Part shown: one piece after another, positions 7,374 through 50,742 of the stretch | Layout of the letters: each line of letters starts with the position of its first letter | Numbering within the stretch: position 1 is the first letter of the stretch | Assembly: GCA_944377485.1 (NCBI GenBank) | Contig: CALWFB010000001.1 | Coordinates: 12,138-76,137 of the forward strand | From: an uncultured Clostridia bacterium | GTDB lineage: Bacteria; Bacillota; Clostridia; Christensenellales; UBA1242 | Length of the DNA: 64,000 nucleotides | Direction of reading: 5' to 3' | The notes under the pieces: model-generated | Seen by the model: the letters and a program-made list of their open reading frames with translations, nothing else | Told to the model about the DNA's origin: nothing | Database searches by the model: none | Translations under genes and position numbers: made by a program

Positions 7374-10300
7374 TTGCAAATCGAAGCATTACTAAAATCC
7401 AATAAAAGACTAGCCCAAGACCTAGAAGACTACGAAATGCAAATCACGAAATTAGAGCATCAACGTGAATTATACGAAATGCAGGTTCCAGTGCACTATT
7501 TGTACAATGAGGATAATATAATCTATGGATTTGGCAAAACTGCGAATGAAGACATCTTCCGCTTAATTCTAATCACCGATTCATATGAAAATTCAATATT
7601 TATCAATTACTCCTCATCCGAAAGCAACCAAATCACCAGCATCATTGATTCAGCGGAAAAGAGCATTACTTTCAACTACGACAGCCAGTTGAGGCTATCG
7701 AGCATAATTGATGCACGAGATAGAGAAATTTCATTTGCATATGTTAACAATCTTTTAACGACAATCACCTACCCTGATAAAACTATCAGTCGCTATTTCT
7801 ACGACTCAGACAACAAGATGATAGCGATAATAGACCAATCAAATATGGGTGCATATTTAGAATATTCGGACAATCAAATCAAGGTTCAAGCGCTCTCCGC
7901 ACTAAATTCTATCAAGCATAACCAGCCAGATTATCAAAAGGTTCTAGACTCGACCACTCTGACCTCTTATTTAATCGACAATTCATATCTCACAATCCAA
8001 TTTTACGACTGCAAAACCACCCACGTCAAAAATGCAAAGGGCAAGACCGTAGTCTATGTATTCAACAATCAAGGACAGGCAATCAATATATACGAAGATA
8101 GTTCTTCCCTGGATTCAGACAACACTAATGTACTGTCCAGACAATACTCTTACACAGACAAATTGCTGTCCGAATCAATCACCACCCTTCCTTATGCCAG
8201 AAATTATTTAGACGGTTCATGCTTCGACACAAGTATAATCTCACAGATTCCAGCACTCTACACTGGCAATATAATCGTCAGTGAAAATGCTTATTCAATC
8301 CCAAGTTTCATCAAAACAGCCTCCTGCGTTCACACTTTCACAGGCGACTTTCAGTCCGCTTCAATCTCAATGAGTGAACTAAATATTAGCGAACTAAACA
8401 CACAACTGACCTCAAAAAAGATTGAAAATATGGTACTCACCGGTTGGGCAAAGGCAAATTCCGCTTTCGTAAAGAATCCAAATGTGGCTGACAAATTTAA
8501 TGACGAAGAAATATCCTACCCAAGTTATATAGACAATAGGAAATTCGAACTTCGCATTTCAATCAAATATTCGGACGAAACCGACCCTCAAATTCTTTCA
8601 AAACAATTTGATTGGATGAACACCGAGTGGCAATATTGCTCTCTTCCTATCAAATTGAAACCAAAACAAATCGAATCCATATCTTGCTATTTCGATTATT
8701 CCAACAATACTAATACAGCCAACGTTCAATTCACTGATTTAGAGTTGCGTGAAGGTAGTTGTGAATCAAGGCATTATGACGATGAAAGCAAACTCATCAA
8801 ATCTGAATCTTCCACTTCTTTCACTCTCTACACCTACGACTCTGATGGCAATCTAATGAGCGAAACCACCCGTCTGATTCATGACGAAGACGATAAAGAA
8901 TTTATCACAACCTACGAATACAACAAAAACAACAAATTATTAAAAACCATCGACTATAATGGTATCATCACAGAAAATGTATATAATGACAAAGGTGTAG
9001 TGACGAAAACTTTGACCTACCATATCAATGAACCTACTCGCAAATTCTATTCCGAAACCCCAACTGACGAAAAAGGCAACACCACAGCTAGCGTAAACGA
9101 ATTTGGCGAACCTCTTGCTAATTATGAGTACATTGATGGCACAGGCATAATCTCTACCGAAACCGACCCTCACAACAACAGAACCTCGTACGCCTACGAC
9201 TCTAATGACACTCTAATCGGCTTAACCAGCACTGTCAATGGCGAAGAAAACACCAATATCTATGGCTACACCCTCACCTTTTTGACCTCGCTTAAACACA
9301 ACGACTTTGAATACAACTATGAGTATGACAACCTAGGCAAACTTAGCAAAATCTCCATTGCAGGAAACGAGTATCTATCTAAAACGTATGCTTATCAAGA
9401 TAATGACTCCATAGAACATGATAGCGAAACCACCACGTACAAGAATGGTGCAACGTTCAAGCAAATTCTCAATGATGACGGCAATGCCACTACTCTTGAA
9501 TATAACGGCAACACTATTCTAGAAAATATCTACAATTCGCTTGGCAATATCATTCAATCTACTGATATGTCAAATGATGAAAATAATATTCACAAGTATT
9601 ATTATGACAAATTTGGCAATCTGTATAGAGAAACCAACACTCAGCACAATACTAATGTTGAATTCGAAAACACTCTCAATCTTGACACAAATCAGCTAGA
9701 TGAGTCCACTATCAAATTAGGTAATGACACTTATCGCTACAATTATTCTTATACCAACAAACTTGACTCCACCATTTCTAATTTGTCTTTAACTAAATTT
9801 ACTAACTCAGATTCTTCCACAGCGCAAACCACCCCAATCTTTGAATCAAATATCAGTTATGATAGACTTGGTAGAATCTCAGAAATCGTTCAAGGTATAA
9901 ATCGTAAACAATATCACTATCTATCCAGTGGAGACCATACGTCAAATCTCATTTCTAGTGTTTGGTATGGTGACAATCTTAAACTTAGTGAAAACTATAA
10001 ATATCGCTATGACGAAAAAGGTAATATCCTAGAAATCCGAGAAAACGGCACTCTAATTGCTCGTTATAAGTATGATAGTTTATCTCGTCTAATCAGAGAA
10101 GATAACAAATCATTCAACAAAACCACAACCTACGACTATGACGCCGGTGGAAATATAATATGTAAAAATATATACAACTTCACACTAGTTGAAAATCTAG
10201 ATTTTGAGACCATTCAGTCTACAATTCCTTATTTATACAAATCTACTGGCTGGCGTGACCAATTAGTTTCATATAATGGCGAAACCTTTACTTATGACGA

Positions 10301-11558
10301 AATTGGTAATCCAACTAAATATAGAGATAAAAACTTATCATGGTCACACGCTAGACAGCTGGATAGTTTCGGAGATATTGCAAGTTTCAAATATAATGCT
10401 AATGGTATTAGAATCAGCAAGACCGTAAATGGTATTACAACTAAATATTATTTAAACGGAAATAAAATCATATCTCAAACTGATGCTACCAATACTCTAT
10501 TCTTCTATTACGGAACAGATGGTATTACAGGCTTCAACCATAATGGAACTGATTATTTATATAAGAAAAATATTCAAGGTGATATAATTGGAATCTATAA
10601 TCCAGAGAACAAGTTAATATGTAAATATATCTATGACGCATGGGGAAATCACGTTTGTCGAATTTTGTCGAATAATGGAGAATACGTTGACATAGTAGAT
10701 ACAAGTAATTATAATATTAATAGCAATTATATAACTATTGCTAACTTAAATCCTTTCCGCTATCGTAGTTATTACTATGATACAGAGACAGGACTATATT
10801 ATCTTAATAGTAGATACTATGACCCACAAACTGGAAGATTCATTAATGCAGATGCTATTTCCATAATTGACATCTCTCAAATAACTATTAATGGATTAAA
10901 TCTTTATTCTTATTGCTTAAATAACCCAGTTAACCAAATTGACGAAAATGGTTATATCGTTGGCTGGCTATTGGCTATAATTGTTGGCTCGATTATCGGA
11001 GCAACGGTGAATACTGGTTTTGAAGTGGCTAATCAAGTAAAAAATCATGGCTGGGATTTAGAAAACTGGAATTGGACTCAAATAGGATTGTCTTTTTTAG
11101 GCGGTGCAGTTTCAGGAGCCATTTCAGCAATTCCTGTTCCTGGATTTCAGACTTTCGGTATTTGGGGTAAAGTTTTTCATTATGGATTAACTTTTGTTAT
11201 TGGAGGTATCGGAGCTGTTGCAGGAGGCTTAATAGATGGTTCTGTCTATAATATCAAAAGTGCTTTTACAAATTTTGCTATTGGTGGAACTTTTAGTTTA
11301 TTTGCTGATTTATTTACAAATGGATTAAATAATATTGTTCAAAAATATTCAAACAATGTTTTAACAAATCCTTTATATGCTAATATGACTTTGGAAGACT
11401 TAATTGGTAGTGGTTTGAAAGAATATCCAAAACATTTAGCAAAATTAATGAATAAATTATCGCGTGCAATATTATATGCAAACAGAGGATTAACCAAATC
11501 TATATTTTATATGATTGGAATAAATTCAATTTTAGAAATCATTTCTGGTTTGCTATAA
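7374..11558 (+). CDS. RHS/YD-repeat toxin protein, apparently 5'-truncated (frame open from 7062 with no upstream start codon)
   Basis: Dozens of YD repeats (YDxxGN, YxYD). Core end YDAWGN...NPFRYRSYYYDTETGLYYLNSRYYDPQTGRFINAD...LYSYCLNNPVNQIDENGY, then a 200-aa variable C-terminus. Only a TTG start at 7374, with no SD. Confidence 0.85.
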   Translation: MQIEALLKSNKRLAQDLEDYEMQITKLEHQRELYEMQVPVHYLYNEDNIIYGFGKTANEDIFRLILITDSYENSIFINYSSSESNQITSIIDSAEKSITFNYDSQLRLSSIIDARDREISFAYVNNLLTTITYPDKTISRYFYDSDNKMIAIIDQSNMGAYLEYSDNQIKVQALSALNSIKHNQPDYQKVLDSTTLTSYLIDNSYLTIQFYDCKTTHVKNAKGKTVVYVFNNQGQAINIYEDSSSLDSDNTNVLSRQYSYTDKLLSESITTLPYARNYLDGSCFDTSIISQIPALYTGNIIVSENAYSIPSFIKTASCVHTFTGDFQSASISMSELNISELNTQLTSKKIENMVLTGWAKANSAFVKNPNVADKFNDEEISYPSYIDNRKFELRISIKYSDETDPQILSKQFDWMNTEWQYCSLPIKLKPKQIESISCYFDYSNNTNTANVQFTDLELREGSCESRHYDDESKLIKSESSTSFTLYTYDSDGNLMSETTRLIHDEDDKEFITTYEYNKNNKLLKTIDYNGIITENVYNDKGVVTKTLTYHINEPTRKFYSETPTDEKGNTTASVNEFGEPLANYEYIDGTGIISTETDPHNNRTSYAYDSNDTLIGLTSTVNGEENTNIYGYTLTFLTSLKHNDFEYNYEYDNLGKLSKISIAGNEYLSKTYAYQDNDSIEHDSETTTYKNGATFKQILNDDGNATTLEYNGNTILENIYNSLGNIIQSTDMSNDENNIHKYYYDKFGNLYRETNTQHNTNVEFENTLNLDTNQLDESTIKLGNDTYRYNYSYTNKLDSTISNLSLTKFTNSDSSTAQTTPIFESNISYDRLGRISEIVQGINRKQYHYLSSGDHTSNLISSVWYGDNLKLSENYKYRYDEKGNILEIRENGTLIARYKYDSLSRLIREDNKSFNKTTTYDYDAGGNIICKNIYNFTLVENLDFETIQSTIPYLYKSTGWRDQLVSYNGETFTYDEIGNPTKYRDKNLSWSHARQLDSFGDIASFKYNANGIRISKTVNGITTKYYLNGNKIISQTDATNTLFFYYGTDGITGFNHNGTDYLYKKNIQGDIIGIYNPENKLICKYIYDAWGNHVCRILSNNGEYVDIVDTSNYNINSNYITIANLNPFRYRSYYYDTETGLYYLNSRYYDPQTGRFINADAISIIDISQITINGLNLYSYCLNNPVNQIDENGYIVGWLLAIIVGSIIGATVNTGFEVANQVKNHGWDLENWNWTQIGLSFLGGAVSGAISAIPVPGFQTFGIWGKVFHYGLTFVIGGIGAVAGGLIDGSVYNIKSAFTNFAIGGTFSLFADLFTNGLNNIVQKYSNNVLTNPLYANMTLEDLIGSGLKEYPKHLAKLMNKLSRAILYANRGLTKSIFYMIGINSILEIISGLL

Positions 11559-22441: not shown

Positions 22442-24277
22442 ATGAAAATAATAACTAGACGAGAATTAATTGATAAATGGTTCAAATTTTATACGAGCAA
22501 AGCTCACGTAATTATACCTAGTGCTAGCATTGTGCCAGAAAACGACCCTACTGTGTTATTCACAACAGCAGGTATGCATCCGCTAGTACCATATTTGCTT
22601 GGTCAACCACACCCAAAAGGTAAAAGATTGTGCGACTTGCAAAAATGTATTCGAACCGGTGATATAGACGAAGTTGGAGATGATAGTCATCTAACTTTTT
22701 TTGAAATGCTTGGCAATTGGAGCCTTGGAGATTATTTCAAGGAACAAATGATTCCTTGGAGTTATGAATTCTTAACCAGTCTAGAATATTTAGGACTGGA
22801 CAAAGACAAGCTTGCTGTCACAGTATTTGCAGGAAATGACATTGCTCCACGAGATAATCTTTCAGCAGCATTATGGGAAAAGCAAGGTATAAAAAAAGAA
22901 AACATTTATTACTTAAAGGATAATTGGTGGATATTGGGAAGCGGAATTGGTCCATGCGGTCCAGATACTGAGATGTTTATTGATACGGGTAAACCAAAGT
23001 GTTCTCCTGAGTGTAATCCTAGTTGCGATTGTGGAAAATTCTTAGAAATTTGGAACGATGTATTTATGGAATATAAAGTCAATCCAGATAAATCAGTCGA
23101 AAAATTAGCTCATCCAAATGTTGACACGGGTATGGGACTAGAACGTACTCTTTGCAAATTAAATGGATACAAATCTGTATATGAAACAGAATTATTCGCT
23201 CCTATCATTCAATATTTAGAAAAAATTAGTGGTAAATCATATCATGATGAAGAATACACTTCTTCATTTAGGATTATCTCTGACCATATGCGTGCTGCTA
23301 CTTTTATTATTGGAGATGAACAAGGTGTTTCTCCTAGCAATTTAGGTCAAGGATATGTTCTACGCCGTCTTATTCGTAGAGCAATTCGACATATGAAAAA
23401 ATTAAGTATAGAAAAAGGTCACCTTGGCGAAATATCTAAACTTTATATAGAATATTTTAAACAAGATTATCCTGAACTCAATACCAATGCTCAAAAGATT
23501 ATTGATGAACTAAATAAAGAAGAAGACAAATTCTTAAAAACTCTTGAATTGGGCAACAAAGAATTTGAAAAAGTAATCAATGGAATTGAACGAAAAAATC
23601 AATTCATGTCAAAAGACCCAAATTATAAACCTGAAAATACTATCAGTGGTAAAAGTGCATTTAGGTTATATGATACCTTTGGTTTCCCAATTGAATTGAC
23701 ACAAGAAATGGCTAATGAACGTGGATATATGGTTGACATAGATGGATTTAACGAAGCTTTCCGTCAGCATCAAGAATTGGCTCGCACCACCAATGCGGGA
23801 GTGTTCAAAGGTGGACTTGCTGACGACAGTGTTTGGACAACTCGACTACACACAGCATGCCACTTATTACTTGCTGGACTAAGGAAAATGTTTGGCAATC
23901 AAATAGAACAAAAAGGTAGCAATATCACTAGTGAAAGGTTGCGTTTTGACTTTAACTTTGATAGAAAATTGACCGATGATGAAGTAAAAAGTCTTGAAGA
24001 ATTTGTAAACTCTGCAATAAAGCAATCTATTCCTGTTGAGCGTTTAGAAATGAAGTTTGAAGAAGCAAAACAAAAAGGTGCATATGGTGTATTAAAGGCA
24101 CAAGATAACGATATAATTTCCATATATAAAATAGGTGACGTAGATTTCCAAATTTGTGGTGGTCCGCATGCAAAAAACACTAGCGAACTGGTTGATTTTA
24201 AAATTGTTAAACAAGAAGCCGTGTCTGCTGGTGTAAGACGTATAAAGGCAGTGATTAATACACAAAATGCTAACTAA
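22442..24277 (+). CDS. alaS: alanine--tRNA ligase, short form lacking the C-Ala domain
   Basis: FTTAGMHP, FFEMLGNWSLGDYFK, GPCGPDTEMF. Editing-domain HTACHLL...CGGPH. Only 611 aa. Confidence 0.9.
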   Translation: MKIITRRELIDKWFKFYTSKAHVIIPSASIVPENDPTVLFTTAGMHPLVPYLLGQPHPKGKRLCDLQKCIRTGDIDEVGDDSHLTFFEMLGNWSLGDYFKEQMIPWSYEFLTSLEYLGLDKDKLAVTVFAGNDIAPRDNLSAALWEKQGIKKENIYYLKDNWWILGSGIGPCGPDTEMFIDTGKPKCSPECNPSCDCGKFLEIWNDVFMEYKVNPDKSVEKLAHPNVDTGMGLERTLCKLNGYKSVYETELFAPIIQYLEKISGKSYHDEEYTSSFRIISDHMRAATFIIGDEQGVSPSNLGQGYVLRRLIRRAIRHMKKLSIEKGHLGEISKLYIEYFKQDYPELNTNAQKIIDELNKEEDKFLKTLELGNKEFEKVINGIERKNQFMSKDPNYKPENTISGKSAFRLYDTFGFPIELTQEMANERGYMVDIDGFNEAFRQHQELARTTNAGVFKGGLADDSVWTTRLHTACHLLLAGLRKMFGNQIEQKGSNITSERLRFDFNFDRKLTDDEVKSLEEFVNSAIKQSIPVERLEMKFEEAKQKGAYGVLKAQDNDIISIYKIGDVDFQICGGPHAKNTSELVDFKIVKQEAVSAGVRRIKAVINTQNAN

Positions 24278-24445: not shown

Positions 24446-24691
24446 TTAAATATCTTCTCTTCCTAGAAGATAATCTGTCGTCACTCCAAAATACTCAGCA
24501 ATTGCAACTAATGAATCAATTTGAGGAGAACGAATTTTTAAAAGCCAACAATTAATGGTTGATTTAGGTATATTTATCTTTTGAGATAATTGCGCAATAC
24601 TTAAAGATTGAAAATTCATTAACTCCTTTAAACGATTAGCAAAAATTGTTAAAATATCTTTTTTATTCAAATCAAAAATATTATCTTTCAT
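24446..24691 (-). CDS. XRE-family helix-turn-helix protein (81 aa)
   Basis: LSIAQLSQKINIPKSTINCWL HTH. Ends TTDYLLGREDI like its paralog. Confidence 0.8.
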   Translation of the reverse strand: MKDNIFDLNKKDILTIFANRLKELMNFQSLSIAQLSQKINIPKSTINCWLLKIRSPQIDSLVAIAEYFGVTTDYLLGREDI

Positions 24692-24770: not shown

Positions 24771-24977
24771 TTATATATCTTCTCTTCCTAGAAGATAGTC
24801 AGTTGTCACATTAAAATAATCTGCTAATTGGACTACTGCATCTATTTTAGGTAATCTTGTTTTCAGTAGCCAACAGCTAATTGTTGACCTAGGAATATTG
24901 ACATTTTTGGCTAACTGTACAATATTCAAAGATTTGAACTCCATGAGTTCACGCAATCTCTCAACAAAAACATTCAT
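24771..24977 (-). CDS. XRE-family helix-turn-helix protein (paralog; start at ATG 24977 or TTG 25010)
   Basis: LNIVQLAKNVNIPRSTISCWL HTH. C-terminus TTDYLLGREDI. Confidence 0.8.
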   Translation of the reverse strand: MNVFVERLRELMEFKSLNIVQLAKNVNIPRSTISCWLLKTRLPKIDAVVQLADYFNVTTDYLLGREDI

Positions 24978-25133
24978 TATTTTGTCTCTCACAAAATTAT
25001 TATGAATCAAGAACGCATATTTATTTTATTAGGTGGCGAAAGCAACCTATTGTAATTATATTAAAACTAGCGAAAACTCGGATAACTTTGAATCTTTATT
25101 TGCTAGCGATTTAGAACAGTTGTTGTTTTCGCT

Positions 25134-25323: not shown

Positions 25324-26958
25324 ATGGACAATAATATTACACCATCTAACTTTATAGAACAAGCAATTGTAGAAGATATTAAAGAAAAAGGTCTTAAAAA
25401 AATCATAACACGTTTTCCACCAGAACCTAATGGATTTACACATATTGGACATGCCAAAGCAATATGTATAGATTTTTTAACCGCTGAAAAATTCAAAGGT
25501 TATACAAATCTTAGAATGGACGACACCAACCCAAACAAGGAAAGTGATGTCTACGTAAAAGCATTAATGGAAGATATCAAATGGCTTGGTTTTAAATGGA
25601 AAAATTTAACTTATGCTTCTGATTACTACGAGTTCCTTTATAATTGTGCAATTGATTTGATTGAACAAGGAAAGGCTTTTGTATGTGATTTGAGTGCAGA
25701 TGAAGTCAGTTCAATGCGTGGAACTCTGACTGAACCCGGGAAAGAAAGTCCTTATAGAAACCGTTCAATAGAAGAAAATTTAAAGTTATTCAAAGAAATG
25801 AGAGCAGGTAAATATGCTGACGGAGAAAAAACTTTGCGTGCCAAAATTGACATGTCTCACCCTAATATAAACATGCGAGACCCTGTTATTTATCGTATTC
25901 TTCATGTGAAACATTTTAGACAAGGGGACAAATGGTGTATTTATCCGATGTATGATTTTGCACACCCATTAAGTGACGCATACGAACAGGTGACTCATTC
26001 TCTTTGTAGTCTTGAATTTGAAGACCATAGACCATTATATAATTGGTTTGTAGATAATTGCAGAATACTACCAGGTGTGAAACCTAGACAAATAGAATTT
26101 GCTAGACTTAACATTGACGGTACAGTAATGAGCAAACGATATATGCACGAATTGGTTGAAAAAGGATATGTCGATGGTTGGGACGACCCAAGACTCCCTA
26201 CTCTATCCGGATTTAGACGCAAAGGATATACTCCAACCGCCATACGAGAATTTTGCACACGTATTGGAGTTGCCAAATCAAATAGTGTAGTTCAACCACA
26301 TATCTTAGAAGCCTGTATTCGTGAAGAGTTGAATAAATCTGCTCTACGTGTGGTTGCTGTTCTTGACCCTATAAAAGTCAATATCACAAACTTCCCAGCC
26401 AACAAGACAGAAAAAGTTTTAATCTCCAACAATCCTACCATAGAAAACAGCAAAAAACATTCAATTCTTTTCAGCAACGAACTATATATAGAACGTGAAG
26501 ACTTCATGATAGAGCCTACCAGCAAATTCTTCCGACTTACTCCGAATGGATATGTTAGATTGATGGGGGCTTATGTCATTAAATGTGACGAAGTTGTTAA
26601 AGATAAAAATGGCAATATTGACCATTTGAATTGCTCGATAATATTTGATGCAAAAGAACAAAACATAAAACCAAAAGGTACAATTCATTGGCTAAGTAGA
26701 AAAGAAGCCGTAAAAATCACCACTCGCAAATTCCACAATCTTTTGAAAGAAGGTGAAGTGTATGAAAGCGGAATGGTGGATAAAATAATCAATCCTAATT
26801 CTATGGAAAAACATATTTCATACATTGAACCATTTGCATTAAAACAAAAAGGAAACATGCAGTTTATCCGAAATGGATATTATATTGAAGATAGTCGTCT
26901 TAGCAAAAAAGATAATAAAGTATTTTTAGAAACAGTAAGTTTAAAAGATAGTAAATAA
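25324..26958 (+). CDS. glnS: glutamine--tRNA ligase
   Basis: TRFPPEPNGFTHIGHAKA (HIGH) and VMSKR (KMSKS). Length 544 aa with a GlnRS-type C-terminal beta-barrel region. Confidence 0.9.
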   Translation: MDNNITPSNFIEQAIVEDIKEKGLKKIITRFPPEPNGFTHIGHAKAICIDFLTAEKFKGYTNLRMDDTNPNKESDVYVKALMEDIKWLGFKWKNLTYASDYYEFLYNCAIDLIEQGKAFVCDLSADEVSSMRGTLTEPGKESPYRNRSIEENLKLFKEMRAGKYADGEKTLRAKIDMSHPNINMRDPVIYRILHVKHFRQGDKWCIYPMYDFAHPLSDAYEQVTHSLCSLEFEDHRPLYNWFVDNCRILPGVKPRQIEFARLNIDGTVMSKRYMHELVEKGYVDGWDDPRLPTLSGFRRKGYTPTAIREFCTRIGVAKSNSVVQPHILEACIREELNKSALRVVAVLDPIKVNITNFPANKTEKVLISNNPTIENSKKHSILFSNELYIEREDFMIEPTSKFFRLTPNGYVRLMGAYVIKCDEVVKDKNGNIDHLNCSIIFDAKEQNIKPKGTIHWLSRKEAVKITTRKFHNLLKEGEVYESGMVDKIINPNSMEKHISYIEPFALKQKGNMQFIRNGYYIEDSRLSKKDNKVFLETVSLKDSK

Positions 26959-34848: not shown

Positions 34849-36582
34849 TTATTGACGCAATCTAATATGAAGTTCTCTCAATTCTTTTTCGCCAACTTCA
34901 ATTGGTCCACCCATCAATAAATCTTGTGCTTTACTATTCATTGGGAAAGGAACAACATCTCTTATGTTTGTGATTCCTAACATTAACATCAATAATCTTT
35001 CAAAGCCAGGTGCTACACCTGCATGAGGCGGCGCTCCATATTGGAATGCTGTATATAATGCTCCAAAACGAGATTTGATTTCTTCCTCTCCGTATCCAAC
35101 AATTTCAAAGACTTTTAGCATTATATCTTTATCTGTATTACGAACTGCTCCTGACGCAATCTCATATCCATTGGCTACCAAATCATATTGATATGCTGTA
35201 ATTTTTAATGGGTCTAATGCATTTAATTCCTCTAAACTTGCTTTTGGCATATTGAATGGATTGTGGCAAAATTCTATTTTGCCTTCATCGTTCAATTCAA
35301 ACATGGGGAAATCTGTTATCCAGCAAAATTCTATTCGAGATTTATCCACCAAGCCCAATTTTTCACCCGCTTCATCTCTTAGCATACCTGCAAGTTTATA
35401 ACACTTCTTGCTGCTAGCATCTGCAATTACAAATATATCATCACCAATTTTTGCGCCAGTTTTTTTGATTAATTCTTGGCATTCCTTTTCTGTAATAAAT
35501 TTCACTATCGGTCCTTTAAGTGAACCATCTTCTTGAACTCTAACCCAAGCCAATCCTTCTGCGCCTTCGCTTAACATTAGGTCTTGCAATCTATCAAAGA
35601 AACTCCTAGGTTGATTACTAGCACTTACAGCAAATCCTTCGACCGTTCTATCTTTAAATGCTTTAAATGTTGTATCTTTGAATACGTCTTCTAATCCTAC
35701 CATAACTATCGGATTTCTTAAATCTGGTTTATCCGTTCCATATTTAATCATTGCCTCTCTATATGAAAGCTTTGGGAAAACTCCTTTATTAAACGGAAAT
35801 TTGCTATATTTAGAAAACAAATCATTGATAAGAGTTTCAACCACTGAATGAACGTCCTCTTGTGTTGCAAAGCTCATTTCCATATCTATTTGATAAAAAT
35901 CTCCTGCAAGCCTATCCGCACGAGGGTCTTCATCTCTAAAACATGGAGCAATTTGAAAATATTTATCAACTCCACCACACATTAAAAGCTGTTTAAATTG
36001 TTGAGGAGCTTGTGGTAGTGCATAAAATTTTCCTTTATGCACTCGACTTGGTACTAAATAATCTCTCGCACCTTCTGGACTAGGGACTGTTAAAATAGGT
36101 GTATTAACTTCTGTAAATCCAAGACTTCGCATTAAGCTCCTGGTCTCAAAAGCAACATCATCTCGCAATTTTAACATTTGTTGCATTTTATCATTACGCA
36201 AATCAAGATATCTGTGTCTTAACCTAATTTCTTCGCTTGTCTTCATACTATCTTCCACATCGAATGGTAGCATATGTTTTGAACTAGACAAAACTCTCAT
36301 CTCATCAATTTTTACTTCAACTCTCCCTGATTTTATATTAGGGTTAATTGTATCCTCATCACGCAAAACAACTTTACCTTTTACTGTTATTACGCTTTCC
36401 CTAGCAAGAGATGTCAATAAACTATCATCATTTGTCTTTAATTGAACGACTCCGCTCTTATCTCGAATATCTATAAAAACAATTCCTCCATGGTCTCGAA
36501 CTGTTTTTACCCAGCCAGCGAGTTCTATTTCTTTTCCTATAAAACTTTCATCTACATCTCCCAGCATCACTGTCCTATACAT
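34849..36582 (-). CDS. aspS: aspartate--tRNA ligase (bacterial type; possibly non-discriminating)
   Basis: FYQIDMEMSF, class II motif 3 GAPPHAGVAPGFERL. 577 aa. Last gene of the gatCAB-aspS operon. Confidence 0.9.
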   Translation of the reverse strand: MYRTVMLGDVDESFIGKEIELAGWVKTVRDHGGIVFIDIRDKSGVVQLKTNDDSLLTSLARESVITVKGKVVLRDEDTINPNIKSGRVEVKIDEMRVLSSSKHMLPFDVEDSMKTSEEIRLRHRYLDLRNDKMQQMLKLRDDVAFETRSLMRSLGFTEVNTPILTVPSPEGARDYLVPSRVHKGKFYALPQAPQQFKQLLMCGGVDKYFQIAPCFRDEDPRADRLAGDFYQIDMEMSFATQEDVHSVVETLINDLFSKYSKFPFNKGVFPKLSYREAMIKYGTDKPDLRNPIVMVGLEDVFKDTTFKAFKDRTVEGFAVSASNQPRSFFDRLQDLMLSEGAEGLAWVRVQEDGSLKGPIVKFITEKECQELIKKTGAKIGDDIFVIADASSKKCYKLAGMLRDEAGEKLGLVDKSRIEFCWITDFPMFELNDEGKIEFCHNPFNMPKASLEELNALDPLKITAYQYDLVANGYEIASGAVRNTDKDIMLKVFEIVGYGEEEIKSRFGALYTAFQYGAPPHAGVAPGFERLLMLMLGITNIRDVVPFPMNSKAQDLLMGGPIEVGEKELRELHIRLRQ

Positions 36583-36597
36583 AATTATCTCCTTTAA

Positions 36598-38010
36598 TTA
36601 GTTAATTTTATCCTTTAATTTTTCCATAACTTCTTGTGCATTTGCTTTCCCTCGGGTTTCCTTCATTACCTGTCCAACAAGGAAATTTAATATTTTAGGG
36701 TCTTGCTCACTTTTATATTGTTCAACGACCTGTGCCTTTTCTAGTAAAACTTTATCCAAAACTTCAAACACTAAATCGCTAGACATATCTGCCATTATTC
36801 CCTGTCTTTTAGCTTCTTGTTCTGCGTTTAAATTTGTTCCCCAAATATAAGATAACAAGTCTTTTGCTGCATTTCTACGAATTTTCTTTTCGTCAACAGC
36901 TCTAATTATCCAAACTAAATTTTCTTTGCCTATTTGAATTGTTCCGCCACCCTTTATTCTAGCAAGAATTTCAGTAGTAAACCAATTTGCAACAGATTTA
37001 GGTTGGAAATACATTTTCAAACAATCTCTATACATATCAGAAACTTCTTTATCTGCTAATATAACATCAGTATCGTATTCATTTAATCCATATTCTTCAA
37101 GATATTTTTTCTTCATCTCATCAGGAAGCATTGGCATGCTATCTTTTATTTGTTTTATTTCATCGTCACTAATGTTTACTGCCAACAAATCTGGGTCGGG
37201 AAAATATCTATAATCTTCGCTATTTTCTTTTGTCCTAAGAGTAAAACTTTCTCCCTTATCATTATCCCATTTTCTAGTCTCTTGAACAATTTCTCCACCA
37301 TCATCAAGTATTTCTTTCTGTCTCTCAATTTCGTAATTTATTGCTCTATGGATTGCCTTAAATCCCATTATATTTTTCATTTCCACTTTTGTCCCAAATT
37401 CTTTACTTCCTTTGGGTTTTAAAGAAATGTTTACATCTGCTCTCATTTGACCTTTTTCTATTTCGCAATCAGCCACTCCCGCATAAATATAAATTTGTCT
37501 CAATTTTGTCAAAAATTCAATCGCTTCATCGGCTGTCTCCATATGAGGTTCTTTCAATGCATCTGTCACCAATTCAATTAGTGGTACACCACATCTATTG
37601 TAATCAATCATTGAAACATCGTCTTGATGAATCAACTTTCCTGCATCTTCTTCCAAATGAATTCTATTGATAGGAATATCTTTGTCAAACACCCGTAGAT
37701 GACCATTGATACAGATAGGTTTTTCTAATTGGCTGATTTGATAAGCTTTTGATAAATCGGGATAAAAATAATTTTTTCTCTCAAAAATCGCTGTACGGTT
37801 AATTTCAAATCCAAGTGCAAGTCCTGCTCGAATAGTTTGTTCCACTGCTTTACGATTCAACACAGGCAAAGCACCTGGTAAACCCATACATACAGGACAA
37901 CAATTACTATTAGGAGAACTGCCGTATTCGTTTTTGCATGAACAAAAACATTTGCTTTCAGTCTTCAATTCCGCATGGACTTCTAGTCCTATTACCACAT
38001 CATATTGCAT
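36598..38010 (-). CDS. gatB: Asp/Glu-tRNA amidotransferase subunit B
   Basis: MQYDVVIGLEVHAEL N-terminus and YqeY-like tail. 470 aa. Confidence 0.9.
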   Translation of the reverse strand: MQYDVVIGLEVHAELKTESKCFCSCKNEYGSSPNSNCCPVCMGLPGALPVLNRKAVEQTIRAGLALGFEINRTAIFERKNYFYPDLSKAYQISQLEKPICINGHLRVFDKDIPINRIHLEEDAGKLIHQDDVSMIDYNRCGVPLIELVTDALKEPHMETADEAIEFLTKLRQIYIYAGVADCEIEKGQMRADVNISLKPKGSKEFGTKVEMKNIMGFKAIHRAINYEIERQKEILDDGGEIVQETRKWDNDKGESFTLRTKENSEDYRYFPDPDLLAVNISDDEIKQIKDSMPMLPDEMKKKYLEEYGLNEYDTDVILADKEVSDMYRDCLKMYFQPKSVANWFTTEILARIKGGGTIQIGKENLVWIIRAVDEKKIRRNAAKDLLSYIWGTNLNAEQEAKRQGIMADMSSDLVFEVLDKVLLEKAQVVEQYKSEQDPKILNFLVGQVMKETRGKANAQEVMEKLKDKIN

Positions 38011-38011
38011 A

Positions 38012-39445
38012 TTATTCTCCTATTTTTGTTTCTATAAATTTTGCGAATTTATAAATCGTTGCTTCATCAAATTTTTTTGCCATAAGCTGTATACCTAACG
38101 GAAGCCCATTATCTCCTTTCCCAAAAGGAATGGATAGTGATGGTAGCCCCGCAATATTGGCTGTCACAGTGAAAATATCCTCTTTGTATGTGTCAACTGG
38201 ATTTTTTGATTTACTGCCAATTTTAAATGCTTCGCCGATTGTCGTTGGCATAATTATAATGTCACAACCTTTGAATGCGTCTTCAAACTCTTTAATCAAT
38301 TCATGTTGAACTGCTTTTGCCTTTTTGTAATATGCATCATAATATCCAGAAGATAAAACATAGTTTCCAAGCATTATTCTTCGTTTTACTTCACGACCAA
38401 AACCTTCGCTTCTACTTTTTTTATATATCTCCTGTAAATTCCTAGCATCATCACTGCGTGTAGTATACTTTACTCCATCAAATCTTGCCAAGTTGCTGGT
38501 TGCCTCTGCTGGTGCAATAATATAATAGGTTGCAAGTCCCAAACTTATATCTTTAATTGATATATCTACAACTTTTATCCCATTTAATTTTAATAAGGAT
38601 AAAAATTTTGAAATATTTTTTTCACACGGCATTCCCTTAATCATTTCTAAAATCTCATGTGGAACACCTATTGTCAACTTTGATATATCTTCATCTAGAA
38701 TTTTTGAATACTCCTCAACTTTTTCATCTGCACTTGTGCTATCACACTCATCTTTTCCTGCAATCACTTCTAGCATCAAAGCATTGTCTAATACATTTTT
38801 TGAAAAGATTCCTACCTGGTCTAGTGAACTAGCAAAAGCCACAATCCCATATCTAGATATTCTTCCATAGCTAGGTTTTAAACCATAAATTCCGCAATAA
38901 CTTGCAGGCTGACGAACGCTTCCTCCTGTCTCTGTACCAAGAGAAATTGGACACATATTCAGAGCAACAGCACAAGCACTTCCCCCTGATGAACCTCCTG
39001 GAACTCTGTCAAAATCTAGTGGATTGTGAGTGACACCAAAAGCCGAATTTTCAGTAGAACTTCCCATAGCAAATTCATCCATATTTGCTCTACCAATTAT
39101 TATCGCACCTGCGTTTAAAACTTTCTTTATGACTGTTGAATCATATTGAGCAATGTAGTTTTCTAAGAATTTTGAACTGCAACTACATTTCTTTCCTTTA
39201 TATAGTATATTGTCCTTAATGATTATTGGCACTCCCACTAGTTTACCACGAAACCCAGATGAAATTTTTTTGTCCATCTCTTTTGCTTTTTCTATTGCAT
39301 CATCAAAGACTTCTAATACCGCATTGTATTTTTCACATTTTTTGATTTGTTCTATAAAAGCCTTACACACCTGTTCGGCGCTCAACTCTTTTGTTAAAAT
39401 TTTATCTCTTATTTCTATTGCTGATAAATCAATAATTTCACTCAT
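38012..39445 (-). CDS. gatA: Asp/Glu-tRNA amidotransferase subunit A
   Basis: Amidase signature GGSSGGSACAVA. 477 aa. Confidence 0.9.
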   Translation of the reverse strand: MSEIIDLSAIEIRDKILTKELSAEQVCKAFIEQIKKCEKYNAVLEVFDDAIEKAKEMDKKISSGFRGKLVGVPIIIKDNILYKGKKCSCSSKFLENYIAQYDSTVIKKVLNAGAIIIGRANMDEFAMGSSTENSAFGVTHNPLDFDRVPGGSSGGSACAVALNMCPISLGTETGGSVRQPASYCGIYGLKPSYGRISRYGIVAFASSLDQVGIFSKNVLDNALMLEVIAGKDECDSTSADEKVEEYSKILDEDISKLTIGVPHEILEMIKGMPCEKNISKFLSLLKLNGIKVVDISIKDISLGLATYYIIAPAEATSNLARFDGVKYTTRSDDARNLQEIYKKSRSEGFGREVKRRIMLGNYVLSSGYYDAYYKKAKAVQHELIKEFEDAFKGCDIIIMPTTIGEAFKIGSKSKNPVDTYKEDIFTVTANIAGLPSLSIPFGKGDNGLPLGIQLMAKKFDEATIYKFAKFIETKIGE

Positions 39446-39447
39446 AT

Positions 39448-39723
39448 CTACTCCATTATCCTAGGAACAACTATACAATCTTTTTTTACGACAGGGGTGT
39501 TTTCAAGTAATATATCAACAGGCATACTGTCCTTTGCTTTATCTTCTCTTAGATTTAACATATCAATGCTATTAATAAAACTGCTTCCGCTAATTTCTGC
39601 ATTTTTCACTATGTCTGCCAACTCCAATAGACTACTAAATTCATTAGAAAACTCTTCCAATTCCTCTGTACTGAATTCCAATTTAGACAATTCTGCAAGA
39701 TGTTCAATTTCTTTAATATCCAT
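39448..39723 (-). CDS. gatC: Asp/Glu-tRNA amidotransferase subunit C
   Basis: 91 aa. MDIKEIEHLAELSKLEFSTEELE typical GatC. AAGGAG SD. Confidence 0.9.
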   Translation of the reverse strand: MDIKEIEHLAELSKLEFSTEELEEFSNEFSSLLELADIVKNAEISGSSFINSIDMLNLREDKAKDSMPVDILLENTPVVKKDCIVVPRIME

Positions 39724-39740
39724 AAATTCTCCTTAACTTT

Positions 39741-39776
39741 AAAAAAACCACAGGTTCTATGTGAGCCTGTGGTTTT
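39741..39776 (-). terminator. attenuator terminator in the gatCAB-aspS leader
   Basis: AAAACCACAGG-11 nt loop-CCTGTGGTTTT plus further Ts, ending 17 nt before the gatC ATG. Confidence 0.75.
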
Positions 39777-39809
39777 ATTCTAATCTAAGCATGACAAAAG
39801 GCCCGCATA

Positions 39810-39863
39810 TTAAATGTGGTTAAGATTGTTATTATTATTGTTATTAATAATAGTAATAATCAT
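39810..39863 (-). CDS. candidate Asn-rich leader peptide MIITIINNNNNNNLNHI
   Basis: ATG preceded by AAGGA. 7 consecutive Asn codons (AAT/AAC) plus one more. TAA stop 1 nt before the antiterminator arm ATGCGGGCCT (39799-39808). Confidence 0.55.
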   Translation of the reverse strand: MIITIINNNNNNNLNHI

Positions 39864-39884
39864 AAATTTCCTTTTGATAAATAA

Positions 39885-39913
39885 AAAATATCACATTAAA
39901 TTAAAAAAGTCAA
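39885..39913 (-). promoter_or_regulatory. promoter of the gatCAB-aspS leader
   Basis: Reverse strand TTGACT-17 nt-TATTTT with an extended TG (TGaTATTTT). Confidence 0.5.
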
Positions 39914-39997
39914 CAGTTTAAGTAAAATTTTCCTTATTTATATTATAATCAAAATTTATTAAATTTATTTCTATCCTGCATTCATCAACATTTGCTC

Positions 39998-40026
39998 TTG
40001 CTAAAAAAAGTAAATAGTGTTATACT
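39998..40026 (+). promoter_or_regulatory. promoter of mnmE (leaderless)
   Basis: TTGCTA-17 nt-TATACT, 6 nt, ATG 40033. Confidence 0.55.
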
Positions 40027-40032
40027 ATTTTT

Positions 40033-41343
40033 ATGGAAACAATTGTAGCATTAGCCACTCCTGCTGGTAATAGTGGAGTCGCAGTTATTAGAATGAGTGG
40101 AGAAAAATCAAAATCAATTTTACAAAAAATAATTCACGAAGATATAGAGTTTGAACCACGTAAAATGTATTTAAAGAGAGTCTATTTTTCAGGACTAGAA
40201 GACACTTGCCTTGTCGTCTTTTTTCCTCATCCTAATAGTTATACAGGTGAAGATGTGGTAGAAATTCAATCACATGGTGGATATTTTATAGCACAAAAAA
40301 TTATTGATGAATTAATCCGTTTAGGAGCAACCCTTGCAGACCGAGGCGAATTTAGTAAGCGAGCATTTATTAATGGGAAATTGTCATTAGACCAAGCAGA
40401 AGGAATTATGGATTTAATCAATGCGGAAAGTGAAATGCAGGCAAAGACAGGCAGTTCATTGATGCAGGGAAAATTAAAAAATTTCATCACCAATTATCAA
40501 AATAAATTGACTGAAATTTTGGCTGAAATTGAGGCAAAACTTGATTATCCAGAATACGAATATACTGAAAATGAAACAAGTAATGTGTTAAAAACTTTAC
40601 AAGATATTGAGGCAAATTTAAATTTACTGATTTCAGAGAGCACTACTGGAATTATAATCAAGAATGGAATAAAAGTAGCATTAATAGGCTCACCAAATGT
40701 TGGAAAGTCGAGTTTACTTAACGCCCTTAGCAAATCAAACAAAGCCATTGTCACCTCCATTGCCGGTACGACTCGTGATGTAATCGAAGCAGAATATGAA
40801 TACAACGGAATTATTTTTAGATTATATGACACAGCCGGCATTCATGAAAGTCAAGATGAAGTGGAAAAAATCGGAATTGAACGTGCAAAACAAATTTTAA
40901 ATGAAGCAGACATAGTTTTAAAAATTTCTGATGATAAAAACCTTTGTACTATTAAAACACCTAAACCCTATATTAATGTTATAAACAAATCTGACATAAT
41001 AGATGTGGATAAAATAAAAAAACAATTTCAAGATGACACCATTTTTGTTAGTGCCAAAAATAATGAAAATATTGATAAATTAAAACAATTAATATTTGAT
41101 AAAACCATTCACGGAGAAATCAATACTAATAAATTATACCTAACCAACACTCGTCATATTGAATGTGTAAAACAAGCCAAAAATTATATAAACAATGCAA
41201 TAACTCAATTTAATTCTACCAGTATGGATATTATATCAAGTGAAATAAAATCTGCATGGTTAGCACTTGGTGAAGTGACAGGTGAAACGAATAATGAAAC
41301 AATAATAGATAAAATATTTTCTAAATTTTGTTTAGGAAAATAA
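40033..41343 (+). CDS. mnmE: tRNA modification GTPase MnmE
   Basis: TIVALATPAGNSGVAVIRMSG N-terminus. G-domain GSPNVGKSSLLN and DTAG. C-terminal CLGK. Confidence 0.9.
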   Translation: METIVALATPAGNSGVAVIRMSGEKSKSILQKIIHEDIEFEPRKMYLKRVYFSGLEDTCLVVFFPHPNSYTGEDVVEIQSHGGYFIAQKIIDELIRLGATLADRGEFSKRAFINGKLSLDQAEGIMDLINAESEMQAKTGSSLMQGKLKNFITNYQNKLTEILAEIEAKLDYPEYEYTENETSNVLKTLQDIEANLNLLISESTTGIIIKNGIKVALIGSPNVGKSSLLNALSKSNKAIVTSIAGTTRDVIEAEYEYNGIIFRLYDTAGIHESQDEVEKIGIERAKQILNEADIVLKISDDKNLCTIKTPKPYINVINKSDIIDVDKIKKQFQDDTIFVSAKNNENIDKLKQLIFDKTIHGEINTNKLYLTNTRHIECVKQAKNYINNAITQFNSTSMDIISSEIKSAWLALGEVTGETNNETIIDKIFSKFCLGK

Positions 41344-47624: not shown

Positions 47625-48980
47625 TTAATATTTTAACAATTGAGATTTAATATCATTTACAAGTGTTCTAATATGTGGATTTATTTTTACTTGATTACTA
47701 ATTTTATCTCTTGCATGCATAATAGTCGTATGGTCTCTTCCTCCAAATATTGCACCAATTGCAGTAAGTGGAATGCTAAGCATATCGTTTATTAAATATA
47801 TGCACAACTGTCTTGGTTCAACAATTTCTTTATTTTTTTTCTTTCCAATCAAATCTTCTTTCGATACTTTGAAGAAATCACATACGGTATTTAAAATTTT
47901 CTCTGCATCGAGATTTGTTTTTTCTGTCTCTCCATAATCTTTAAGTGCTTCGTGAGCATCTTCCATAGAAGCATGTGATTTTCCAAGCAAACTTGAATAA
48001 AATACCACTTTTGATAATATTCCTTCCATCTCACGAATATTAGTTCCTGTCTTTTGTGCTATAAAATCTACTACATCTTCGTCAACAAGATATCCCTCTT
48101 GACTACATTTTTTCTTAATAATTGCTACCTTAGTTTCATAATCAGGCTCTTGAATATCTTGAATAAGCCCACTACTGAATCTACTACGTAATCTCTCTTC
48201 TAATGAACTCATCTCTTTTGGTGAACGGTCAGAAGCAATTATAATCTGTTTATTGTTTTGATATAAATCATTGAATGTATGGAAGAATTCTTCTTGAATT
48301 CCCATTTTGTTGCTAATGAATTGAATATCATCAATCATTAACACATCTACACTACGATATTTATCTCTAAAATCGAGATTTGATTTATCTTTTCCACTAC
48401 GGATAGAATCTACATAATCATTTGTGAATTTTTCACATGTCACATAAAGTACGTTTAAATCAGGTCTATGTTTGTTTAAATAATTACCAACTGCATGCAA
48501 TAAGTGTGTTTTACCAAGTCCAACACCTCCATAAATGAATAATGGATTAAATTTTTCACTAGGGTGTTCCGCTACACTCTGCATAGCTGCACATACTACT
48601 TGATTTGATTTTCCTACTACAAAGTTTTCAAATGTATATTTTTGATTAAATTTGGACTTAAAGTTATTTGAATCTTTTTCACTCATCATTCGCTCTAATT
48701 CTTCATCTTGTTTTCTAATAGATTCTTCATATTCCTGATTGTCTGTTATTCGAACGAATGTATATGGTGTAAACTCTTGTCTAACACATTTTGTTATTTT
48801 TTCATATATAGCAGGTTGATTAACTTGATTTTTCGCTGTAATACTAGGTGCTTTTAATATTAATTCATCATTTGCATATTGAATTGGCGTCAAGGTATTT
48901 ATCCATAAATCAAAGGTGACAGCGGTCACTTCGTTTTCTAACTTATTCAATACCTTTTTCCATTGGTCAAGTAAAAACAT
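47625..48980 (-). CDS. dnaA: chromosomal replication initiator protein DnaA
   Basis: Walker A GGVGLGKTHLLHA, MIDDIQF. C-terminal DNA-binding domain FGGRDHTTIMHA. Confidence 0.95.
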   Translation of the reverse strand: MFLLDQWKKVLNKLENEVTAVTFDLWINTLTPIQYANDELILKAPSITAKNQVNQPAIYEKITKCVRQEFTPYTFVRITDNQEYEESIRKQDEELERMMSEKDSNNFKSKFNQKYTFENFVVGKSNQVVCAAMQSVAEHPSEKFNPLFIYGGVGLGKTHLLHAVGNYLNKHRPDLNVLYVTCEKFTNDYVDSIRSGKDKSNLDFRDKYRSVDVLMIDDIQFISNKMGIQEEFFHTFNDLYQNNKQIIIASDRSPKEMSSLEERLRSRFSSGLIQDIQEPDYETKVAIIKKKCSQEGYLVDEDVVDFIAQKTGTNIREMEGILSKVVFYSSLLGKSHASMEDAHEALKDYGETEKTNLDAEKILNTVCDFFKVSKEDLIGKKKNKEIVEPRQLCIYLINDMLSIPLTAIGAIFGGRDHTTIMHARDKISNQVKINPHIRTLVNDIKSQLLKY

Positions 48981-49551: not shown

Positions 49552-49644
49552 AGTCATGTATCATTAGATGGAATGCGAGCAATTTCACGTGGTACAGATG
49601 ATATTGAGGGGGAAGTATTATCGTGGTATGTTAAGGAGTCTATT

Positions 49645-50742
49645 ATGAAATTTAGATGTGATGGTTTAGAATTGAGCGAAGCAATTAGTACAGTATCAAA
49701 AGCTATTAGTTCAAAGACTACTTCTCAAATACTTGAAGGAATTAAGATGGTATGTGAGAATGACTTGCTTATACTTACTGCTACTGACCTTGAAATGAGT
49801 ATTGAAAAGAGAATTCGAGCAGAAGTTGATTCTCGTGGCGAAACAGTTGTGCCAGGTAGATTATTTGGCGAATACATAAAAAAGCTAACTAATGAACAGA
49901 TTGAATGTGAATTGAATGAAAAAAATCAGTTAAAAATTTCGTATACAGACAGTGAAGGCTGTTTACAATGTATGGAAATTAGTGAATTTCCTGCAATTAA
50001 AGAAGTTAATAAGGATAATTTCTTTGAAATCACAAAAGAAGATTTCAAAGCTTTAATAAATAATGTTTTCTACGCAGTAGCACAAGATGATAGTAGACCA
50101 ATTTTGAAAGGAATATTGTTAGAAACTAATCAAAATACGATTAAAGCAGTGGCTGTGGATGGTTGTAGATTGAGTATTTCTAATAAAAATCTTGTTATGA
50201 GTACAACAGATTTTAAAATCATTGTTCCAGGAAGGAATCTTAATGAAATTGTTAAGATGATGAATGGCGATGATAATGTGAAAATCTATGTACATTCAAA
50301 CAACATAATGGTAGATTTGGGTGATACGATAGTAATCAATCGTTTGATTGATGGGCAATTTATTAATTATCGTCAGATTGTTCCAAAGGATTTTTCAACA
50401 ATTGTCACCATCAACAAAGAGCAATTAGAAGATGCTATTGATAGAGCCAGTGTACTTTCTCGCATTGACAAAAATAATTTAGTAAAATTTGACATCAAAG
50501 AGAAAAATTTGATGCTTACGTCAAATAGTGAAATAGGTAATACACGTGAAAATATTACAGTAGGAGTAAAAGGTAATGATTTAAACATTTCGTTTAATTC
50601 TAAATATTTTAGTGATTGTTTGCGTGTGATTGATAATCCATACGTTAAGATGAACTTTAATAGTCAGATTCAACCTTGTGTAATAACTCCATGTGAAGGT
50701 AATGATTTCTTATTTTTGATTTTACCTGTAAAAGCTAGATAA
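49645..50742 (+). CDS. dnaN: DNA polymerase III beta sliding clamp
   Basis: Start at ATG 49645 (MKFRCDGLELSEAIS) after AAGGAG. About 365 aa, clamp family. Confidence 0.9.
   Translation: MKFRCDGLELSEAISTVSKAISSKTTSQILEGIKMVCENDLLILTATDLEMSIEKRIRAEVDSRGETVVPGRLFGEYIKKLTNEQIECELNEKNQLKISYTDSEGCLQCMEISEFPAIKEVNKDNFFEITKEDFKALINNVFYAVAQDDSRPILKGILLETNQNTIKAVAVDGCRLSISNKNLVMSTTDFKIIVPGRNLNEIVKMMNGDDNVKIYVHSNNIMVDLGDTIVINRLIDGQFINYRQIVPKDFSTIVTINKEQLEDAIDRASVLSRIDKNNLVKFDIKEKNLMLTSNSEIGNTRENITVGVKGNDLNISFNSKYFSDCLRVIDNPYVKMNFNSQIQPCVITPCEGNDFLFLILPVKAR

Follow-up and report, generated by a model that had tools for sequence, protein, structure and literature searches.

The locus described here lies in a stretch of 64,000 nucleotides (nt) from an uncultured Clostridia bacterium (contig CALWFB010000001.1), which is called the window in the following. 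Its minus strand carries the genes for the amidotransferase GatCAB and for an aspartyl-tRNA synthetase (AspRS) in one operon, which is preceded by a short leader with a run of asparagine (Asn) codons. All leader and operon coordinates are given in window numbering and refer to the minus strand. The operon consists of gatC (39448..39723; TIGR00135, 55.7 bits, above the cut-off), gatA (38012..39445; TIGR00132, 590 bits), gatB (36598..38010; NF004014, 562 bits) and, as the last gene, aspS (34849..36582), encoding a bacterial-type AspRS of 577 amino acids (aa; NF001750 of NCBIfam, 735 bits). The intergenic gaps of the operon comprise 1-15 nt, most of them 1-2 nt. Upstream of the leader there is no minus-strand gene, and the neighbouring mnmE, at 40033 on the other strand, is oriented divergently. 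Hence, the terminator in front of gatC is situated inside a 5' leader and does not mark the end of another gene.

The motifs of the leader were placed by script on the minus strand of 39500-40100, and the layout which an earlier note on this DNA had proposed, i.e. promoter, Shine-Dalgarno (SD) sequence, open reading frame (ORF), regions 1 to 3 and terminator, was recovered with each element at its claimed position. The consensus-type promoter is composed of the -35 box TTGACT (39913-39908), also listed by the promoter scan, and, after a spacer of 17 nt, the extended -10 box TGaTATTTT (39893-39885); judged from the spacing alone, transcription probably starts near 39878. The SD sequence AAAGGA (39874-39869) is followed by an ORF of 17 codons from ATG to TAA (39863-39810) for the peptide MIITIINNNNNNNLNHI, which includes seven consecutive Asn codons (39845-39825) as the putative regulatory codons. 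Region 1, AACCACAU or (A)ACCACAT (39821-39814), has two possible partners, the 5' half of region 2 and region 4. Region 2, ATGCGGGCCT (also given as AUGCGGGCCU; 39808-39799), begins 1 nt past the stop codon and represents the 5' strand of the putative antiterminator. The 3' strand is the region 3 partner AGGCTCACAT (also given as AGGCUCACAU; 39768-39759), which consists of the loop and, ahead of it, the final 3 nt of the 5' arm of the terminator; a hand check of this 2:3 pairing in the window gave 8 Watson-Crick pairs, 1 G-U pair and 1 C.A mismatch. The intrinsic terminator (39776-39741) has an 11-bp stem, an 11-nt loop and U7, its arms being AAAACCACAGG (39776-39766) and CCTGTGGTTTT (also given as CCUGUGGUUUU; 39754-39744) with the U7 extending to 39741, and is followed by the gatC SD (39734-39729) and the gatC ATG (39723). 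In addition, CAAAAGG (39876-39870), around the SD of the leader ORF, is complementary to CCUUUUG (39801-39795), an anti-SD segment sharing nucleotides with the 3' end of region 2. The motif AACCACA occurs twice on the minus strand, in region 1 (39815-39821) and in the terminator 5' arm (39768-39774), whose core region 1 thereby duplicates; both copies are complementary to region 4. The whole element comprises approximately 135 nt. Folding of the free leader, which had been suggested as a check, gave a z value of -3.9 compared to shuffled sequences and -17.0 kcal/mol for the terminator.

The Asn run is unusual within its own DNA. Despite a G+C content of only about 30%, which makes AAT a frequent triplet, the (AAY)x7 stretch is the sole run of at least five such codons on both strands of the 64 kb, and none of 300 first-order Markov simulations resulted in a run of six or more. 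Further Asn leaders were not found in the 64-kb window.

The conservation of the element was followed through related loci, which are cited by their numbers. A scan based on GatA with one genome per species found only two close relatives, the next matches having at most 52% identity: L001, a metagenome-assembled genome of Candidatus Onthoplasma, a genus placed in Christensenellales according to NCBI, with 80% identical GatA, and L002 with 73% identical GatA. Both carry the same leader. A DNA-pattern scan of metagenomes added L082, which is near-identical to the window, and the new lineage L081. Furthermore, a protein search with GatC listed 87 relatives with 49-99% identity, and the contigs of 12 of them were inspected for the leader, which was recovered wherever GatC is at least 55% identical (L083, L085, L087, L089, L091, L093-L097 and L099, the last being truncated with the leader cut inside the ORF). 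Altogether, the element stands in front of gatC in 15 lineages, 14 of them complete, with GatC being 55-99% identical, and at most 450 nt upstream of this gene in L001, L002, L081, L083, L085, L087, L089, L091, L093-L097 and L099. All 14 complete leaders kept the promoter TTGAC[AT]-17-TGnTAnnnT, the SD sequence and the in-frame ATG. Hence, Asn-run mini-ORFs with a covarying 2:3 pairing (see below), for which the earlier note had advised to search upstream of gatC in related genomes, are indeed present in the relatives.

Outside this group the element was not detected. The locus L098, with 49% identical GatC, lacks a leader, is preceded by another gene and represents the border of the putative attenuator-bearing clade; there, the 3' end of a preceding ORF of 95 aa runs into the start of gatC (L098:344-912). 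Among 78 GTDB species representatives with at most 52% identity in GatA, no Asn mini-ORF was found upstream of gatC, and two weak outgroup candidates were rejected, because L008 and L036 represent a coding region and a plain spacer. A T-box in front of gatC was likewise absent according to Rfam in 11 outgroup loci. The element is thus apparently confined to one clade of low-GC gut Clostridia.

A side observation concerns L081. A second Asn-rich mini-ORF, MFRVMNNNFNNNNLNANNLGFIFVVEKF, immediately precedes the promoter of the main gatC leader (L081:850-1002, minus strand of the locus). It is unrelated in sequence, comes with a strong terminator of its own and shows an alternative pairing of 9 bp between GGGUUUCAU and AUGAAACCC; the contig breaks off at the SD of the second mini-ORF. 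From their sequences, the two look like different Asn attenuators in series.

The comparison of the 14 lineages shows which parts of the ORF are kept as codons. The run comprises 7-8 codon positions in all 14 complete leaders, and 98 of its 101 codons are AAT or AAC, with toggling between T and C at many third positions. The three remaining codons are GAT (two times) and TTT (once), whereas AAA and AAG do not occur at all, even though among the AAN codons of ten window genes AAA is the most frequent. This absence argues for a selection for Asn codons rather than for A-rich RNA. The two GAT codons for aspartate (Asp) are found in L085 (about 2871-2873) and L097 (about 2416-2418), the Phe codon in L095. 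GAT is one transition away from AAT; an Asp codon in the run might perhaps not be neutral, AspRS being encoded in the operon.

The residues ahead of the run vary from lineage to lineage (MIITII, MFAV, MLNIVL, MKNFNM, MTKMI), and the C-terminal part reads [LFV]-N-H-I in 10 of the 14 lineages. In L083 and L087, a 1-nt insertion past the run led to the loss of the TAA, and the peptide ends with LKPHMNADLL, while the peptide of L091 ends with FNHTSM and its stop codon lies inside region 2. Despite these altered peptide tails, the nucleotides of regions 1 and 2 were retained in L083, L087 and L091. Hence, conservation acts on the RNA in the 3' part of the ORF and on the codons in the run, since the frame of the tail changes while its nucleotides persist.

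The two alternative hairpins are supported by covariation, which was counted on the 14-sequence alignment A1. For the terminator (3:4), 94% of the cells are paired and 3 pairs changed on both sides, while slid partners reach 27-53%; compensatory examples are the replacement of CCACAGG/CCUGUGG by UCACAGG/CCUGUGA or CCACAAG/CUUGUGG. The consensus structure calculated by RNAalifold corresponds to this terminator hairpin. For the antiterminator (2:3), 83.5% of the cells are paired, again with 3 pairs changed on both sides (9 cells), compared to 22-50% for slid partners, and its covariation of 0.210, versus 0.101 in shuffles, was reached by none of 500 shuffled alignments. It must be mentioned that two lineages are out of register in A1 at 2:3, a bias which acts against and not in favour of the antiterminator. 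In an alignment-free comparison, cognate 2:3 duplexes had a mean of -12.2 kcal/mol versus -8.9 kcal/mol for non-cognate ones, and none of 10000 permutations was as good. The position of the C.A mismatch in the window is occupied by U-A, A-U or C-G in other lineages.

The complementarity between the SD and anti-SD segments behaves similarly. It is part of the minimum free energy (MFE) structure of the free RNA in most versions, the window included, and the duplex has a mean of -10.5 kcal/mol versus -4.9 kcal/mol for shuffled partners, and in only 15 of 5000 permutations did swapped partners match or exceed the own ones. Its length also covaries by eye, with CAAAGG/CCUUUG in L001, L089, L094 and L096 versus CAAAAGG/CCUUUUG in most others. 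This helix may act as a lock, which would close region 2 as well as leader translation as long as the SD is free of ribosomes.

The positions of the ribosome were considered by folding transcripts cut just before region 4, with a mask on the A-site codon plus 12 nt. With the mask at the first or last run codon, the 2:3 pairing was predicted in 14 of 14 lineages (-7.3 to -20.3 kcal/mol), and a mask at the stop codon abolished it in 13 of the 14, which left the terminator alone. In 11 of the 14 lineages, region 2 starts 16 nt past the last run codon. These predictions bear out the trp/his-type geometry that had been read from the window. Furthermore, with a mask early in the run, a nested 1:4 plus 2:3 structure represents the MFE in several versions; by its complementarity, region 1 could capture region 4 once 2:3 is formed.

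Taken together, these features very probably describe a leader-peptide attenuator. In the proposed mechanism, the strong promoter would give rise to a transcript that opens with the 17-codon ORF, and a ribosome would load while the RNA polymerase is still transcribing the leader. As long as Asn-tRNA(Asn) is plentiful, the ribosome would cross the seven Asn codons, reach the stop codon and cover region 2, which would leave region 3 to pair with region 4; the terminator would form and transcription would end at approximately 39741, ahead of gatC. When Asn-tRNA(Asn) becomes scarce, the ribosome would stall in the run and region 2, located 16 nt past the last run codon, would be exposed and pair with region 3 once this is made, thereby blocking the terminator and allowing the polymerase to enter gatC-gatA-gatB-aspS. 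The 2:3 helix would have to form first and hold region 3 while the polymerase passes the U tract. Read-through would then raise the supply of the enzymes for both steps, the synthesis of Asp-tRNA(Asn) and its amidation. If the leader is not translated at all, the SD would pair with CCUUUUG and region 1 with region 2, such that region 2 stays closed and termination would be the default. Based on the sequence comparisons, we consider it highly probable that the element is a functional leader-peptide attenuator, which senses Asn-tRNA(Asn) and controls gatCAB-aspS.

Nevertheless, several points weigh against this interpretation. Equilibrium folding of the full-length window leader retains the terminator also when a ribosome is masked in the run, and the 2:3 helix of the window, including its C.A mismatch, is weaker (-7.8 to -10.6 kcal/mol) than the terminator (-17 kcal/mol). 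Since the terminator is favoured at equilibrium even with a stalled ribosome, read-through must be kinetic; the E. coli trp attenuator is likewise kinetic. The one exception in the masked folding is L085, in which a 7-nt tandem duplication right after the stop codon leaves the core of 2:3 open to the terminating ribosome. Moreover, of the complete 1-2-3-4 scheme claimed from the window, 2:3 and 3:4 are backed by covariation, whereas the 1:2 complementarity, found in most lineages with 75% of cells paired and also in the MFE fold, is nearly invariant and does not covary significantly, and the same is true for the 1:4 complementarity with 89% of cells paired; being almost invariant, the two pairings are neither supported nor contradicted by covariation. 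In the window there is no room for a second promoter between terminator and gatC; if its aspS is the sole AspRS gene, the expression of this enzyme would hang wholly on terminator read-through. The physiological role would also depend on asnS, a second aspS or an asparagine synthetase outside the 64 kb: without asnS and asparagine synthetases, the attenuator would be the homeostat of an essential pathway, and with them an induced reserve during starvation, as in C. acetobutylicum. Finally, the translation of the ORF, the stalling, the kinetic competition of the hairpins and the physiological signal are steps that we infer.

Other explanations have to be considered as well. The hairpin geometry would suit any stall in the ORF, so that the poly-Asn ORF could use the same hairpin switch and act via the nascent peptide or the speed of translation, i.e. 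as an arrest peptide resembling ErmCL, TnaC or SecM or as a sensor of ribosome capacity. The [LFV]-N-H-I tail shared by 10 of the 14 lineages would be consistent with such a function; however, exactly this tail was reframed in L083, L087 (LKPHMNADLL) and L091 (FNHTSM) with its nucleotides kept, which points to a conservation as RNA, and the N-terminus is freely variable. A conserved peptide, as expected for nascent-peptide arrest, was hence not found, and all that is strictly retained of the coding content is a stretch of codons for a single amino acid, placed ahead of the operon that produces the corresponding aminoacyl-tRNA. We regard a nascent-peptide or speed effect as very unlikely. A shade less probable still is a main control at the level of translation or transcript fate, by the SD helix, mRNA stability or a small RNA (sRNA) acting in trans like rnTrpL, with the terminator being constitutive. 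The co-evolving SD/anti-SD complementarity and the good promoters between terminator and gatC in several relatives would fit such a control, and sRNAs derived from the trpL attenuator are documented for Sinorhizobium (PMC7968998). But a constitutive terminator does not account for a covarying antiterminator, and in the window, L081, L083, L085 and L087, where terminator and gatC start are spaced by 17-23 nt without a second promoter, the operon can be expressed by read-through only. An additional sRNA role could be compatible with attenuation. Among the relatives with longer spacers of 52-166 nt, a near-consensus extended -10 promoter is often found in the spacer, most clearly in L089:2942-2970, L099:108-136 and L002 (about 5675-5690, by eye); such a spacer promoter would permit a gatC expression that is independent of the attenuator.

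Covarying alternative hairpins fit any antitermination system, and the ORF could thus be irrelevant, with a protein, a metabolite or, as in a T-box, an uncharged tRNA binding the leader RNA in trans and switching between terminator and antiterminator. A T-box on aspS-gatCAB is in fact known in Clostridium acetobutylicum, as cited in PMC4206432. However, the Rfam scan of the whole window returned tRNAs only; the T-box model (RF00230) had no match at gathering score in the window nor with E<=10 in 39650-40050, and neither T-box nor riboswitch matched the leader at either threshold, so these readings were rejected. Furthermore, the RNA from the promoter to region 2 is nearly all ORF and leaves no space for a Stem I or an aptamer, and a trans factor would leave the AAY-only codons with in-frame SD and ATG in 14 of 14 leaders unexplained; we give this possibility even less weight than the control by transcript fate. 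The permissive Rfam scan of the leader resulted, besides noise, in a sub-threshold match to Thr_leader (RF00506; 28.7 bits versus a gathering score of 55). This model of a leader-peptide attenuator aligns over its full length, which reflects a shared architecture only; the leader codons are for Asn and not for Thr or Ile. As to chance, an Asn-rich ORF beside an ordinary terminator in an AT-rich spacer would be favoured by a G+C content of about 30%, but the simulations mentioned above and the conservation in 15 lineages with covariation, down to 55% identity in GatC, refute this reading for practical purposes, and its probability is negligible.

The attenuator interpretation agrees well with known systems. 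The leader shares with trpL, hisL, leuL, thrL, ilv, pheA and the leader of pheST, an aminoacyl-tRNA synthetase operon of E. coli, a promoter-proximal short ORF with a run of cognate codons, and with classical attenuators in general the Rho-independent terminator before the first gene, the antiterminator sharing a strand with it and the decision by ribosome position. Of the features of a classical attenuator, the promoter-proximal ORF, cognate codon cluster, terminator, mutually exclusive antiterminator and ribosome geometry were found, and for a 1:2 pairing that closes region 2 in the untranslated leader there is complementarity. In contrast to the classical leaders, to which it has no sequence homology, its regulatory amino acid is Asn, the genes encode an amidotransferase and AspRS instead of a pathway for a free amino acid or the cognate synthetase, and the host belongs to the low-GC Clostridia and not to the proteobacteria. 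The extra SD-sequestering helix and the copying of the terminator 5' arm by region 1 are further differences.

Closest in function is the aspS-gatCAB operon of C. acetobutylicum, for which control by a T-box was reported (Saad et al., 2012, as cited in PMC4206432), in line with the earlier note on Clostridium. Both cases have in common an operon of AspRS and GatCAB, the bacterial class and a premature terminator that answers to the charging of tRNA(Asn). They differ in the sensor, which in C. acetobutylicum is an RNA reading uncharged tRNA, while in the present case it would be a translating ribosome that reads the usable product. Being aminoacylated, Asp-tRNA(Asn) should pass for charged tRNA at a T-box, and a block of amidation should thus escape it, whereas the ribosome sensor would probably also respond when amidation is limiting and tRNA(Asn) accumulates as Asp-tRNA(Asn). 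The Asn-tRNA(Asn) that a ribosome can use is only the one brought in by EF-Tu. Some mischarged species are bound less tightly by EF-Tu in vitro, the in vivo extent of which is unclear (PMC2330236). The closest parallel in mechanism within the same phylum is provided by the His leader peptides found before hisS paralogues and hisZ in Bacilli (Naville and Gautheret, 2010, PMC2965389), which likewise represent regular leader-peptide attenuators in Firmicutes at the usual position of a T-box and in front of a gene for aminoacyl-tRNA synthesis, but concern another amino acid and other genes and have no sequence relation to the element.

The operon itself is consistent with an Asn-specific task. The window encodes GlnRS, as had been stated before, in the gene glnS (25324..26958, plus strand; TIGR00440, 607.6 bits, above the cut-off), and GatCAB is therefore probably dispensable for Gln. 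Together with the common operon of GatCAB and AspRS and the Asn codons in the leader, this points to the amidation of Asp-tRNA(Asn) as the operon's job and suggests that GatCAB in these uncultured gut Clostridia serves Asn. The earlier assignment of a non-discriminating-type AspRS plus GatCAB was borne out for the operon genes and not for the AspRS type, since the enzyme is bacterial-type by model and scores below the cut-off of the archaeal-type model aspS_nondisc. The closest solved structure is the P. aeruginosa Asp/Asn enzyme 4WJ3, a weak hint given its small margin over E. coli AspRS; from the operon context, the AspRS is presumably non-discriminating. An asnS was not present among the 18 larger window ORFs that were scanned, and a tRNA-Asn, looked for with regard to U1-A72, was found neither in the window nor in 14 related loci.

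The regulation of the indirect routes to Asn-tRNA and Gln-tRNA is largely unknown, and the one described case uses a T-box (cited in PMC4206432). A review from 2008 lists this regulation as an open point (PMC2330236), and a T-box survey of the same year found no T-box before amidotransferase genes (PMC2494555). Full-text searches, whose coverage leaves out most subscription journals, yielded no report on an Asn leader peptide or on a gatCAB operon controlled by a leader peptide or attenuator, in agreement with the earlier note, to which no such version was known. New aspects would be the amino acid, the class of controlled genes, the unusual phylum and the SD lock, while the mechanism itself is of the trp/his style and known. 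With this element, Asn would join the few amino acids for which leader-peptide attenuators are known, and a further leader peptide would replace a T-box in Firmicutes. A wider interpretation is possible, although on balance we find it somewhat doubtful: GatCAB/AspRS would be the clade's only source of Asn-tRNA(Asn), the leader would act as a product-specific homeostat that also reports amidation failure and would be the first leader-peptide attenuator for Asn and for any tRNA-dependent amino-acid synthesis, supplemented by the SD lock and, in at least one lineage, by two serial Asn attenuators. In practical terms, the compact element with its 15 natural variants and their compensatory changes is usable to test whether a ribosome-based sensor tells amidated from mischarged tRNA, and it can serve as a sequence marker for the annotation of uncultured gut Clostridia.

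Some further observations were made in the window. A Gln leader in front of glnS was considered and rejected, because the 1-kb gap upstream of this gene holds two small ORFs on the opposite strand (24446-24691 and 24771-25010, minus strand; 81 and 79 aa). The two ORFs are similar and apparently paralogous, and each of them adjoins a similar sequence, cgaaatc(a/g)tttgacaa; our impression is that they encode small helix-turn-helix regulators. The AlaRS (22442-24277, plus strand) is a short form of 611 aa. Its match to a PRK01584-type model extends over the full length, and that to TIGR00344 (alaS) is confined to positions 3-430 of 847. A protein of 1394 aa (7374-11558, plus strand) combines YD repeats with an RHS core domain and is possibly a toxin-delivery protein. 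The segment 44001-50742 may represent the replication-origin region; dnaA (47625-48980, minus strand) and dnaN (49573-50742, plus strand) are divergent, the stretch from 44 to 48 kb has a G+C content of 22.5%, and mnmE and mnmG are located nearby.

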